Source: an uncultured Alphaproteobacteria bacterium
GTDB lineage: Bacteria; Pseudomonadota; Alphaproteobacteria; Rs-D84
Direction: 5' to 3'
Assembly: GCA_949082785.1 (NCBI GenBank)
Contig: CARVLU010000002.1
Location: 4,993-68,992, forward strand
DNA: 64,000 bases
Below, piece after piece: positions 33,354-36,804 of the stretch (its first letter is position 1; each line of letters begins with the position of its first letter). Position numbers and translations under genes: made by a program. The notes under the pieces were generated by a model. The model did no database searches. It saw only the letters and a program-made list of their open reading frames with translations, and was not told the origin of the DNA.

Positions 33354-33857
33354 TTATTCCACCCAGATTGTGGCGTATGTCGTGGCGGTGGCCGATCCCA
33401 CGGGAATCTGAATATTTTCGTACGTAACCGTCAGATTTCCCCCAGACACAGCCATCGTGCGCGCGAATTTTCCGGCGGCACTGTTGGCGGTGGCAGTACC
33501 GACACTGCCGGTGGCGCCTTTGGCCCCTTGGGCACCTGTCGCACCCTGGGGGCCAGTATCACCCTTGGCCCCTGTTGCGCCCTGGGGGCCCTGGACGCCC
33601 TGTAATCCACGTTCCCCCTGGGGACCCGTTGCACCCTGGGCCCCTTGGGGTCCGACAGCACCGGTTGCACCCGTTGCCCCCTGGGCGCCGGTCGCACCCT
33701 GGGGGCCGGGGGTTAATTCAATTGTCTGAATTTGACGATCGACGTAATCCACACTGGCCACGCGGTCAACTGTGGCTGCATGCCCATCCGTCAATGATGC
33801 CCCCACGGCCATAATGGCTGTTAATGAAACTGCTAAGAAACCTGTCGTCTTCATCAT
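33354..33857 (-). CDS. Secreted collagen-like (G-X-Y repeat) protein
   Basis: Signal peptide, then [34 protein letters not shown]... about 28 triplets, globular C-terminus ending TIWVE. Confidence 0.75.
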
Positions 33858-33964
33858 AATTCTGTACTGATATTCTGTTAATTAATTTTTGCGCATGTTA
33901 TGCGATTTTCTGGGATGTGATATACCGGTCAATTTATCACATCCCATATTTTTTTGCCAGATGT

Positions 33965-35023
33965 TTATCGGGCAATCACTTCCCAACCATATGCAGTACC
34001 GTTAAATGTCAGCACGCATTTGCTTTCCGCATCTGCACATTCACCCGGGGCCGCTGTGGCCAATGCCCCCAGGTCTGTGGAATTAACTTTCTTTGCGATT
34101 TCTGTCGCATTTGTCTGGGTGGCCGCCAATGCGTTATCTGCAATGGTCTTGGTTGCCGCCAATCCGGTTGTGGCGTTTGTCACGACCCCTTCCAGGGCAT
34201 CAACATCAGCCTGGGCTGCATCAGCCGCAGTTTTCGCACCCGCGGCAGCGGTTGCGGCATTGTCTGCGATTGTCTTGGTCGCGGCCAGACCGGTTGTTTC
34301 GTTTGTGACAACGGCTTCCAGTGCATCTACATCACCCTGGGCGGCAGATGCGGCTGTTTGCGCGGCGGTGGCAGATGCCTGGGCGGCGGTGGCGGCGGAT
34401 GCCGCTTCTTCGGCAGCAGTTTGCGCGGCGGTAATGGCATCGCCATTGGCTGTGACGGCGGCATCGATTTCATTAACCGCGGCAACAACATTCCCCTTGG
34501 CCGTGGTTGTCAATTCTGTCAATGTACCGATGGCGGTCAAAGCCTTGGTCGCGTCCTGGGTGGCGGTGTTTGCAACGCCTTCGGTTGCCTTAACCGCGTA
34601 AGTTGCGGCCGCGCTGGTTTTGGTTTCCATATCGGCGATGGCTGTCTTGTCCGCTTTCTTGTCCAATTCGGTGGTCATTGTTGTTGTGTCAACTTTCTTT
34701 TCCAAATCGGCGGTGGTCGCATAATCGGCCAAGGCTTCATCAATGGCACCACCTTCGGCGATGGCGGTGTTGATTTCGTTTGTGATTGTTGTGGTAACCT
34801 GTTCGGTGGTGGGGTAACTTTTCAAGGTTTCCGAAACCTGGTTTGTGATGTTTTCAGTAATTGTTGTTGTCTGGGCAGTATTTTGTCTGTCAACATATTC
34901 CTGACTGGCGATTTTTGCGACTGCCGCATTTGCCGCACCCGTGGTCAAGATGGCGGCCATAACGCCAGAAAAGATAATTGTGTTTTTTTTCATATTTCCT
35001 CCGTTTAGGTTTTTATAAGGCAT
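33965..35023 (-). CDS. Secreted Ala/Thr-rich repeat protein (coiled-coil fibre-like)
   Basis: Signal peptide; tandem 33-aa repeats AADAAQADVDALEGVVTNATTGLAATKTIADNA; C-term CADAESKCVLTFNGTAYGWEVIAR. Confidence 0.65.
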   Translation of the reverse strand: MPYKNLNGGNMKKNTIIFSGVMAAILTTGAANAAVAKIASQEYVDRQNTAQTTTITENITNQVSETLKSYPTTEQVTTTITNEINTAIAEGGAIDEALADYATTADLEKKVDTTTMTTELDKKADKTAIADMETKTSAAATYAVKATEGVANTATQDATKALTAIGTLTELTTTAKGNVVAAVNEIDAAVTANGDAITAAQTAAEEAASAATAAQASATAAQTAASAAQGDVDALEAVVTNETTGLAATKTIADNAATAAAGAKTAADAAQADVDALEGVVTNATTGLAATKTIADNALAATQTNATEIAKKVNSTDLGALATAAPGECADAESKCVLTFNGTAYGWEVIAR

Positions 35024-35043
35024 GTTGACACATGCGTTGATTG

Positions 35044-36804
35044 TTATTCGGCGACTTCGACCCAGGTCTGGATGCCGTTATTGACAACCCACACATAGTC
35101 TTTGCCATCTTTGGGCGCGTCGCCCGGTTGCGCCGCAGTTTCAGCCAGTGCCCCCTGGGCCGCGGTCGCATAGTTCGAGGAAGCATTTGTAATCGCATCG
35201 GCAATCACACCCGCCACCTGAGTCTTGTTATAATAGTCTTCCAGTTCCAGACTGGCGTCCCCGGGTTCACCCTTGGGCCCTTGGGGACCGGTATCACCCT
35301 TTTCCCCTTTTTCACCCTGGGGTCCCATCGGGCCTGTTGCACCCTGGGGACCGGTTGCGCCGGCGGCACCTTGGGGTCCGGTTTCACCGGTATCCCCCTT
35401 GTCGCCTTTGTCACCTTTTTCGCCCTGGGGGCCGGCGGGGCCTGTTTCACCACGCACCCCTTGGGGTCCCGTCAGACCGGTTAAACCAATCGGTCCCTGG
35501 GGGCCCATTTCACCGGTGTCACCCTTGTCGCCCTTTTCCCCTTGGGGACCGGTTTCGCCCGGCGCGCCCTGGGGCCCCATTTCACCCTGGGGACCGGCAA
35601 CACTTAAATCCGCTTCTAAATCAGACAGACTGACATCAATCTTGCCGTCGGAAATCGTGATGTAATTACCAGATTCCAACAAGTTTTGTTTCAACAACAG
35701 ACGGTTATCAACCTCTGTCTTGTTATAATAGTCACCCAATTCGACACTGGCGTCGCCCGGGTCACCCTTTAATCCTTGGGGTCCCTGGGGTCCCATTTCA
35801 CCGGCATCCCCTTTGTCGCCCTTTTCCCCTTGGGGGCCAATCGGACCCGTTGCACCCTGGGGACCGGTGTCACCACGCGCGCCCTGGGGACCGGCCAGAC
35901 CGGTTAAACCAATCGGTCCCTGGGGGCCCATTTCGCCGGCGTCACCCTTGTCCCCCTTTTCACCCTGGGGGCCCATCGGACCAATTGGTCCCTGGGGACC
36001 CTGGATACCGTCAACACCGGTTAATTCAGACAAAGAAATCAATTCATTCCATGTGGTACCATCAACACTCCACGCGATGGCGTTATTGCGAATGGCCATT
36101 TGAATCTGCTGACCAATCGATGATTTCAAATCGTTGGCCAATTCGCCAATTTCCAAAAAGATGTTATTATCAGCGTCAATCGTAATATAATCTTTGGCCG
36201 TCAAGATATCCTGTTTGCCCGCCAAATCATCGGTTGTCGCCAAACCAGCCAAATCTTCGTCCGTGACCAGCCCGTCCAAATCGGCGGATGTCACAAAGTT
36301 ATCCAATTGACCGGTAATGCCGGAAACCTGGGTATCCAAATCCTGGGCCAGGGATTCAATTTGTTTCTGCAATTCATCACGCAACGCATTTAAATCGTCG
36401 GACGAAAAATCACCACCACTGGACCCGGGTTTGTTATTTACCCCGCCGGACGTACCGGGGTTCGGATTTTTAATCGAACTGCCGCCGCTGACGGTGGTGC
36501 CGCCGCCCAAGTATTTACCAATCGACAAACGCGATGTGGATGCGGTGGAATTGGTCACCGGTTTGGCCGCGGTACCCGGGCGCGTTGCATTTGACGGCGA
36601 CACGCGCATAGAACCCGCACGCACAGCGTTGATTGCAGCACTGCCGGAACTGGCCTTGGCCGCGGCGGCACTGGACGCGCCGTTATACGTACCGGTTCCG
36701 CCCAACGAACGAACCGATGCCGCACCATACGCCACAGACCCGGCGGTGCCGCACAATACACAAAACATTGACAGTGCTGATATCTTTAAACCGTTTCTCA
36801 TCAC
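35044..36804 (-). CDS. Large secreted collagen-like protein with two G-X-Y blocks each followed by a DYYNKT(E/Q)V module
   Basis: 586 aa; GPQGEKGDKGDAGEMGPQGP... repeats; G(D/E)PGDASxELxDYYNKT twice; C-term DYVWVVNNGIQTWVEVAE. Confidence 0.75.
   Translation of the reverse strand: MMRNGLKISALSMFCVLCGTAGSVAYGAASVRSLGGTGTYNGASSAAAAKASSGSAAINAVRAGSMRVSPSNATRPGTAAKPVTNSTASTSRLSIGKYLGGGTTVSGGSSIKNPNPGTSGGVNNKPGSSGGDFSSDDLNALRDELQKQIESLAQDLDTQVSGITGQLDNFVTSADLDGLVTDEDLAGLATTDDLAGKQDILTAKDYITIDADNNIFLEIGELANDLKSSIGQQIQMAIRNNAIAWSVDGTTWNELISLSELTGVDGIQGPQGPIGPMGPQGEKGDKGDAGEMGPQGPIGLTGLAGPQGARGDTGPQGATGPIGPQGEKGDKGDAGEMGPQGPQGLKGDPGDASVELGDYYNKTEVDNRLLLKQNLLESGNYITISDGKIDVSLSDLEADLSVAGPQGEMGPQGAPGETGPQGEKGDKGDTGEMGPQGPIGLTGLTGPQGVRGETGPAGPQGEKGDKGDKGDTGETGPQGAAGATGPQGATGPMGPQGEKGEKGDTGPQGPKGEPGDASLELEDYYNKTQVAGVIADAITNASSNYATAAQGALAETAAQPGDAPKDGKDYVWVVNNGIQTWVEVAE

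Follow-up and report, generated by a model that had tools for sequence, protein, structure and literature searches.

Background

Secreted trimeric fibres that combine phage-like with collagen modules are already known from bacteria. The closest functional analogue of the genes considered here is found in Bdellovibrio bacteriovorus, whose mosaic adhesive trimer (MAT) fibres possess a conserved beta-rich N-terminal domain of ~130 aa right after the signal peptide, a beta-helical or 'meandering' shaft and, at the C-terminus, large variable domains of the tip or S74 chaperone type (PMC10769870). For the collagen part, the closest systems are Lcl of Legionella, Scl1/Scl2 of Streptococcus, and BclA. 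Here we analyse a stretch of 64,000 nucleotides (in the following 'the window') from an uncultured alphaproteobacterium of the order Rs-D84 (assembly GCA_949082785.1, contig CARVLU010000002.1, positions 4,993 to 68,992 of the forward strand), in which three neighbouring genes, P1, P2 and P3, encode fibrous proteins. As far as sequence alone allows us to judge, collagen is one interchangeable stalk type in a larger, undescribed fibre family of four classes (A to D), to which all three genes belong. We propose with moderate confidence that the class A, C and D genes of the window form the local version of a conserved Rs-D84 cassette, which would encode Sec-exported, most likely homotrimeric rod fibres composed of phage tail-fibre-type modules and used for surface attachment. 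It is the fibre family that is new here; the open-access literature mentioning Rs-D84 or Enterousia does not describe these proteins.

The genes share with MAT fibres a chromosomal location, multiple paralogues, signal peptides, modular exchange, a phage tail-fibre-like and (in our case by deduction) trimeric nature, and their occurrence in a cell-dependent bacterium. Likewise, neither system has a recognised surface route or anchor. The architecture, however, is different: P2 is predicted to be helical from residue 31, which is ~8 residues past the predicted cleavage site, and the collagen of P1 starts at residue 51, so that neither protein has the N-terminal domain that characterizes MAT fibres. 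The stalks are of collagen or alpha-helix, the C-terminal modules are only 25-45 aa long and conserved within each class, and no sequence relationship to MAT proteins was detected. A Peptidase_S74 chaperone domain is likewise missing from P1, P2 and P3 (no Pfam hit at E <= 0.1).

Lcl, Scl1/Scl2 and BclA have in common with the collagenous members of the cassette a signal peptide, an unbroken G-X-Y stalk, a flanking non-collagen domain that possibly nucleates trimers, and repeat numbers that vary among strains; Thr is common at the Y position in the cassette collagen, as it is in BclA. None of these families accommodates P1 and P3. The Legionella Lcl model (NF046116) yields 146 bits for P3 and 52 bits for P1, compared to a cut-off of 500, and the matches cover model positions 85-242 (G-X-Y) only. 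With the models for streptococcal Scl1/Scl2 (SclA and SclB; NF038330 / NF038329) the scores are 137 and 132 bits, where 400 and 325 would be required, and again it is the G-X-Y part alone that matches. An LPXTG motif is lacking, and the organism is a diderm that encodes OMP, Pal, TolB and AsmA. For a protein of the BclA or exosporium type a matching C-terminal domain is lacking, as the Pfam matches of P1 and P3 are to Collagen only; nor does Pfam find the Lcl C-terminal domain in the two proteins, and in the cassette family collagen is an optional stalk.

Trimeric rods of Gram-negative bacteria with coiled-coil stalks and repeat-driven length variation are also known from the YadA family of trimeric autotransporter adhesins (TAA), which our fibres, if they are trimers as we suppose, resemble in these respects. 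In contrast to that family, the cassette proteins have no C-terminal YadA anchor and no head or neck motifs detectable by Pfam, and their two-strand tails end in charged residues (..EVIAR, ..WVE) and not in the beta-signal of an outer-membrane protein (OMP).

Fibre genes and the adjacent outer-membrane protein

The three open reading frames (ORFs) claimed within 33354-36804 in an earlier note on this DNA exist and are co-oriented on the minus strand, and the OMP gene that the note had placed beside them is borne out by a Pfam match:

33354-33857, minus strand: P1, class D fibre gene (167 aa), with signal peptide, SVDYVDRQ box, 24 G-X-Y triplets and 45-aa tail
33965-34993, minus strand: P2, class C fibre gene (342 aa), with signal peptide, IASQEYVDRQ box, Ala/Thr-rich helical stalk, and a tail of Cys-x6-Cys loop and hairpin
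35044-36801, minus strand: P3, class A fibre gene (585 aa), with signal peptide, 'SVRSLGG' N-box, Ser/Gly-rich region, helical/'DL' region, two collagen blocks and hairpin tail
36867-37592, minus strand: beta-barrel OMP gene (241 aa, C-terminal RYEF; PF13505 OMP_b-brl, E 1.2e-8)

The coordinates given earlier for P1 stand, whereas the starts given for P2 (35023) and P3 (36804) are revised to 34993 and 36801; the revised start of P2 is preceded by a GGAGG Shine-Dalgarno sequence. P3 is directly preceded by the OMP gene, which has the same orientation and is separated from it by a gap of 62 nt, and both adjacency and orientation are kept in ~20 related metagenome-assembled genomes (MAGs). A scan for promoters and terminators yielded counts not above those in shuffled sequence. 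Because these counts are uninformative, it is the short gaps of 50-107 nt and the conserved gene order that suggest a single operon.

Sec signals had likewise been claimed, and all three proteins possess signal-peptide-like N-termini with a basic n-region, a hydrophobic core of 12-15 residues and an A-x-A-type site, recognized by eye and not by a predictor. In P3 the signal peptide reads as follows and is conserved among class A orthologues:

36724-36801, minus strand: putative P3 signal peptide, aa 1-26, MRNGLKISALSMFCVLCGTAGSVAYG|A

A family of four fibre classes

A genome scan with an alignment of the P2 family recovered 24 loci, all of them from uncultured gut Alphaproteobacteria (including Candidatus Enterousia) of humans, mice, chickens and ruminants. 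In ~20 MAGs the gene order of the locus is conserved: PlsC, DUF218, FtsX, FtsE and a Pal-like gene lie on one strand, followed by the OMP gene with two to six co-oriented fibre genes and then by VTT, RbfA, an acetyltransferase and LepA. The fibre genes of the window occupy the same slot, just downstream of the OMP gene and between the FtsEX/Pal-like block and RbfA/LepA. Position and termini sort the fibre genes of the cassettes into four classes:

Class A (window gene P3): N-terminus with signal peptide, 'SSVRSLGGxGTY' and a Ser/Gly-rich stretch; C-terminus e.g. DGKDYVWVVNNGIQTWVEV or 'VLGTDGxGxPVWYEI'
Class B (absent in the window): N-terminus with YVD box; C-terminus 'C..SGLCVLSV...G...WVNVT.P'
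Class C (window gene P2): N-terminus with 'EIASKGYVD'; C-terminus 'C....NKCVLT.NNS.Y.WEVI.R'
Class D (window gene P1): N-terminus with YVD box; C-terminus a 45-aa module

Since P1, P2 and P3 combine a signal peptide and a class-specific N-terminal box with a variable stalk and the C-terminal module of their class, they are members of this family, as judged by sequence features. Class A orthologues are present in 13 loci and class D orthologues number 16. Among database sequences, class C has >170 homologues with the same ends and variable stalks, and class A has 141, with the N-terminal box retained in 116 of the 120 homologues considered. An exhaustive search with the tail profile returned 243 clusters among 1.84e9 representatives, and the tail is almost always located at the extreme C-terminus. 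No homologue bears a functional name, and no Pfam domains were found in them beyond coiled-coil noise. Two cassettes (L026, 5127-12592, and L027, 6486-12040) contain five or six fibre genes each. Among the tails of their extra paralogues are further variants, e.g. CALVWNKNTKKLDWEAIMQ and GNYIVHLDGAGNVTWKAVEV, so that the scheme of four classes is a simplification.

Interchangeable stalks

Within each class the signal peptide, the N-terminal box and the C-terminal module are conserved, and the stalk in between, which is either collagen or an Ala/Thr-rich helix, varies in length among strains. Class D proteins range from 128 to 992 aa and are collagenous in the window and in the MAGs L004, L010 and L011, whereas they are Ala/Thr-rich in other genomes. 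Collagen in class A is likewise restricted to some genomes and was found in 7 of 120 homologues. Among near-identical strain variants of P2 both termini are invariant and the stalk differs by in-frame indels of 13-49 aa; in one variant exactly one 42-aa unit is missing.

The collagen-like character ascribed earlier to P1 and P3 holds up in a search with the Collagen HMM (hidden Markov model) PF01391, in which both proteins exceed the gathering score of 27.2 bits (P1 58.2 bits, E 6.8e-16; P3 103.5 bits, E 5.1e-30), while P2 is without G-X-Y repeats. The tracts are:

33492-33707, minus strand: P1 collagen tract, aa 51-122, 24 unbroken G-X-Y triplets
35749-36018, minus strand: P3 collagen block 1, aa 262-351, 30 unbroken G-X-Y triplets, ending in GDPGDASVELGDYYNKTEV
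35254-35595, minus strand: P3 collagen block 2, aa 403-516, 38 unbroken G-X-Y triplets, ending in GEPGDASLELEDYYNKTQV

Both P3 blocks close with the motif G(D/E)PGDAS.EL.DYYNKT(E/Q)V, again in agreement with what had been noted before, and the underlying direct repeat of 74 nt is 80% identical. P3 further contains a duplicated motif, KDYITIDADNNIFLEIGELANDL (aa 203-226) and GNYITISDGKIDVSLSDLEADL (aa 377-399), with one copy ahead of each of the two blocks, which points to a unit of nucleation motif plus collagen that was duplicated within the protein. A hairpin-like motif, AIAWSVDGTTWNELISL (aa 241-257; 36031-36081), is located immediately ahead of collagen block 1, and none of the tail HMMs described below matches it. 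In the closest related MAG (L004, 3779-4819) the class D orthologue has 346 aa, compared to 167 aa in P1, with near-identical ends and a much longer collagen tract. The copy number of G-X-Y triplets therefore changes quickly.

The stalk of P2 had been described as composed of perfect 33-aa tandem repeats. This is not the case; the repeat is imperfect and has a period of 42 aa with 1.8 copies, and a core of ~30 aa is nearly the same in both copies (27 of 30 residues identical). The helical, coiled-coil-like nature that had been assumed for this Ala/Thr protein is supported by structure prediction, which renders it almost wholly helical. The YVDRQ box that two of the proteins had been said to share after the signal peptide is indeed common to P1 and P2 and occurs in no other of the 651 ORFs that make up the ORF set of the window. 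The features of P2 are:

34137-34363, minus strand: imperfect tandem repeat of the P2 stalk, 126-nt (42-aa) period, 1.8 copies, 78% nt matches (TRF)
34883-34912, minus strand: P2 YVD box, aa 28-37, at the start of the predicted helix

Five residues of the YVD box (I28, S30, Y33, V34 and D35) are invariant in the class C alignment. An AlphaFold2 (AF2) model of the P2 monomer, based on an alignment of 67 sequences, predicts helices from aa 31 to ~320, with pLDDT >90 over approximately aa 170-300, and a C-terminal beta-hairpin with strands at 326-330 and 335-339. Modelled separately, the last 62 residues consist of helix, Cys-containing loop and hairpin, the latter with pLDDT 77-80. The only cysteines of P2, C319 and C326, are both invariant, which suggests a disulfide and hence an exported protein, as would fit an oxidising compartment. 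A BFVD fold search with the full-length P2 model gave nothing significant.

C-terminal modules

All three proteins end in a W-(V)-E-(V) pattern, in which a common anchoring or trimerisation end had been seen. As a pattern this ending stands, and it is limited to these three of the 651 ORFs; as one common module it does not. The tails are:

35047-35124, minus strand: P3 class A tail, aa 560-585, PGDAPKDGKDYVWVVNNGIQTWVEVAE, with strand-turn-strand pattern
33968-34054, minus strand: P2 class C tail, aa 314-342, AAPGECADAESKCVLTFNGTAYGWEVIAR, disulfide-type loop followed by beta-hairpin
33357-33491, minus strand: P1 class D C-terminal module, aa 123-167

Tail HMMs were built from other genomes, leaving out the genome of the window, and each of them matches the gene of its own class (P2 E 2e-19; P3 E 2.5e-8, rank 1 of 651 ORFs; P1 E 3.7e-17). 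Across classes all matches have E > 10, the class C tail HMM forced onto the P3 tail reaches 3.9 bits only, and hhalign assigns a probability of 0.15% to a relationship of the A/B/C tails with the D tail. These comparisons do not support one tail common to all three genes. The tails of classes A, B and C do follow one pattern, namely a Pro-rich lead, (Y or C)-V-L, 3-6 residues, G, 3 residues and W-x-x-(V/I), of which the Trp is invariant; in the class C alignment this applies to W337 of the P2 tail as well as to C319 and C326. The P2 and P3 tails probably share a hairpin type. The P1 tail, by its alignment (mean column identity 67% in class D), is a different conserved module. A single end for three genes is thus abandoned, and a role of the tails in trimerisation is plausible.

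Outside the cassettes little resembles these modules. The class D tail has chance-level matches only among PDB sequences, and a homologue search with the 48-aa P1 tail returned one candidate, the query being too short for the word index. Viral contigs of IMG/VR contain no relatives of the class C and class D tails.

The T4 fibritin foldon has the sequence EAPRDGQAYVRKDGEWVLL, APRDGQAYVRKDGEWVLL. It is similar in layout, a long rod with a terminal beta-hairpin of ~27 residues, and its pattern resembles DAPKDGKDYVWVVNNGIQTWVEV, APKDGKDYVWVVNNGIQTWVEV of P3 in a register that hhalign chose as well. Homology to the foldon was rejected: the hhalign probability is 0.3%, no foldon PDB chain was found at E <= 10, there is no Fibritin_C hit in Pfam, and Foldseek retrieved nothing from PDB and BFVD. 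The possible working of the tails can be pictured by analogy with the foldon, but we do not assign them to its family.

Phage tail-fibre motifs

P1 and P3 match many PHROG tail-fibre families (E down to 2e-58), and 1453 phage records match P3. These matches are largely compositional, since they are located in or beside the collagen tracts (P3 aa 230-563). P2, on the other hand, has no match among 50,697 phage records in a tblastn search. Links outside collagen are found with profiles: The class C tail profile matches tail-fibre proteins of phrog_9729 (E 1e-37 to 1e-62) via four to seven internal copies of SNPTSGYVLSWNGSDYAWV, a phage fibre repeat that corresponds to SNPTNKCVLTYNNSAYAWEV of the class C tail. 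The phrog_9729 proteins are large and without signal peptides, and their repeat, NQSNPTSGYVLSWNGSDYAWV, is approximately the class C tail minus its cysteines. In the reverse direction, an HMM of the phage repeat has the P2 tail as its best match in the window (E 0.0045). The tail-fibre family phrog_892 is matched (E 1.4e-17) by the non-collagen part of a class B orthologue.

With phage fibres (PHROG 6320, 819, 9729 and 892, and gpH of bacteriophage P2) the cassette proteins have in common a collagen tract that is followed by a DYYNKTEV-type motif. They differ from them by Sec signals, a fixed chromosomal locus and the lack of baseplate-attachment or receptor-binding domains. Bacteriophage P2 gpH also contains ATQDYVDDKI and ATPKAVK, which resemble the IASKGYVDQQV and YPSAKAV motifs of the fibre family. 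A homology of gpH with the YVD box of our protein P2 was rejected, as the best hhalign register (gpH 145-162, TVMATQDYVDDKIAEHEQ) is not significant (E 0.11, probability 0.55%). To judge from these motifs, the building blocks of the family are phage tail-fibre-like.

A phage-like contig (L030; ena:ERZ16268164 scaffold_3603, 7722-17780) bears genes for an endolysin, for a phage RNA-polymerase-like protein of 1493 aa and for a protein of 3352 aa in which Peptidase_C39_2 and CHAP domains are found. This large protein closes with ~280 aa of class C stalk and Cys-hairpin tail, which are 57-86% identical to the bacterial proteins. As the gene stops 5 nt from the contig end, there is a slight possibility of an assembly join, although the fusion junction lies exactly at the end of the CHAP domain.

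Chromosomal setting

Housekeeping genes are found throughout the 64-kb window and its 483-kb parent contig. The neighbours on the contig include TolB, a Pal-like OmpA protein, FtsE/FtsX, PlsC, RbfA, LepA, acpP-fabF and the S10/spc ribosomal operon, and further EF-G/EF-Tu, DnaN, GyrB, DnaJ and UvrC. Proteins of this organism are found in hundreds of assemblies. The earlier statement that the genes are chromosomal agrees with this core-chromosome setting and with the synteny across ~20 MAGs. As the window contains no phage structural genes (capsid, sheath, baseplate, tape-measure, terminase), the genes are not part of a prophage tail module, which the note had named as the finding that would overturn its reading.

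Downstream of the cassette the window contains three genes that are found in this slot only here and in the closest relative (L004):

31374-32948, plus strand: fusion of GT2 and Methyltransf_24 (Pfam)
30282-31082, minus strand: Cys-rich secreted protein, no Pfam hit
29161-30267, minus strand: GT4 (Pfam)

The GT2 fusion and GT4 might modify the Thr-rich fibres, e.g. by glycosylation, or else lipopolysaccharide. Other Cys-rich proteins fill the slot downstream of the fibre cassette in two further MAGs (L010 and L012), and two more Cys-rich proteins with signal peptides are encoded elsewhere in the window (59775-60551 and 60590-62626, both on the minus strand), with weak or faint Ephrin_rec_like matches. 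A lone integrase-like gene (24380-25396, minus strand; Arm-DNA-bind_3, weak Phage_int_M) is located between LepA and acpP, in surroundings otherwise free of mobile-element genes. The window further possesses a tRNA-Pro gene at 19353-19429, and a 298-aa gene without Pfam hit (44129-45025, plus strand), which adjoins a CopG-antitoxin-like gene of 74 aa between TolB and DnaN and may form a toxin-antitoxin pair with it.

Proposed assembly and function of the fibres

The anatomy of the genes, their family membership and synteny, the non-prophage context, the interchange of stalks and the links to phage motifs are directly supported by our data. From them we infer oligomeric state, outer-membrane route, anchoring and function. 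A G-X-Y tract folds only as a three-chain helix. Homotrimeric rods are the most economical reading of the whole family, because the same terminal modules flank a collagen stalk in one genome and a helical stalk in another; if stalk types interchange within a class, the ends must suit trimers.

According to the mechanism that we propose, the precursor would cross the inner membrane by means of its signal peptide, which signal peptidase I would cleave. The short class-specific C-terminal module would then set the register of the chains and nucleate the trimer, presumably by the predicted beta-hairpin in classes A, B and C, with a Cys-x6-7-Cys disulfide lock in B and C, and by the 45-aa module of its own in class D. 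From there the stalk would zip up, either into a triple helix of collagen or into an alpha-helical rod rich in Ala and Thr. The fibres might finally stand on the cell surface with their conserved N-terminal boxes held by an outer-membrane component, for which the always-adjacent OMP is, speculatively, the prime candidate. They could serve as attachment or spacing fibres of a partner- or host-dependent bacterium, and stalk swapping together with in-frame length variation would generate antigenic, phage-related or reach diversity.

Several points weigh against this reading. Expression, trimer formation and surface location are presumed; an outer-membrane translocation or anchoring domain is not recognisable in the three proteins (no TAA anchor, lipobox, LPXTG or MAT-type N-domain); and it is conserved adjacency that connects the OMP with the fibres. 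Neither cross-class HMMs nor hhalign support homology among the three tails, the similarity between tail and foldon is without statistical support, and the fold searches are empty. The AF2 models, moreover, represent monomers, and their confidence is moderate (mean pLDDT 68.6 and 71.7).

Other interpretations are conceivable. On the one hand, the fibres could make up a coat for protection or spacing, be it a hair-like nap, a substitute for an S-layer or a decoy for phages, which keeps phages, immune factors and neighbours away and whose thickness is tuned by fibre length. Paralogous fibres of very different lengths in one operon, stalk lengths that differ among strains, and C-terminal ends that are small conserved modules rather than diverse ligand-binding tips would all suit such a coat, and a phage carrying the same stalk and tail suggests that phage and host interact at this structure. 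We nevertheless regard a coat as rather unlikely: no data here discriminate a coat from an adhesin, the predicted dependence on a partner favours attachment, and Pfam finds no self-assembly or lattice domains. On the other hand, the proteins might never leave the periplasm and act there as trimeric rods, tethering the outer membrane to the cell wall or the inner membrane or keeping it at a distance from them, like Lpp or Omp-alpha of Thermotoga. A Sec signal without a visible outer-membrane export device would then be expected, the neighbouring envelope genes (Pal-like OmpA, TolB, FtsEX, OMP) would fit, and some homologues do score on the Alanine_zipper (Lpp) model of Pfam. A spacer of fixed width, however, would not tolerate orthologues that range from ~130 to nearly 1000 aa and frequent indels among strains. 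As lipobox and peptidoglycan-binding domain are lacking too, and phage tail-fibre modules and a phage with the same tail point to an exposed structure, we consider this very improbable.

Ordinary tail fibres of a phage, a tailocin or a gene-transfer agent encoded in the chromosome are hardly conceivable, even though P1 and P3 have PHROG tail-fibre matches, P3 has its 1453 phage records, tail-fibre motifs are present, and the integrase-like gene at 24380-25396 is only 8 kb away. The phage matches of P1 and P3 are collagen-linked, particle genes are missing from the window, housekeeping genes flank the cassette, its position is kept in synteny across ~20 genomes, and the class C and D tails have no IMG/VR relatives. 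Furthermore, signal peptides are present in all members, while the parts of virions are assembled in the cytoplasm. A prophage setting is rejected on similar grounds (the gene content of window and contig, the lack of a tblastn match of P2 among phages, and phage matches of P3 via collagen only) and is largely refuted. Sec-exported rod fibres for surface attachment are thus the reading that we prefer.

Implications for the biology of Rs-D84

Candidatus Enterousia belongs to the order Rs-D84, the genomes of which are <1 Mb in size and lack flagella, the TCA (tricarboxylic acid) cycle and respiration; an obligate symbiotic or parasitic life on other cells is predicted for members of the order, from which neither pili nor adhesins have been reported (PMC12306168). 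We place the organism of the window here by its similarity to named MAGs, as opposed to a phylogeny. A more far-reaching version of the attachment hypothesis, which we put forward only tentatively and which may well prove wrong, is that OMP and fibre cassette together constitute a dedicated partner- or host-attachment apparatus of Rs-D84 / Ca. Enterousia. Its Sec-exported trimeric fibres would be a hitherto unrecognised class, domesticated from phage tail-fibre modules, with the mini C-terminal modules as nuclei of folding and registration, interchangeable stalks and the OMP as anchor, and phages of the lineage would have recaptured the module.

The fibre family documents two-way module traffic between the bacterial chromosome and its phages. 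The swap of collagen and alpha-helix between very short terminal modules is a natural experiment, which could yield minimal trimerisation tags comparable to foldon. If the fibres are a generic coat, they still represent a new family, though one of modest interest. Rs-D84 / Ca. Enterousia are common in human and animal guts and are uncultured, and a fibre cassette in so small a genome is a candidate for the apparatus by which these bacteria make contact.

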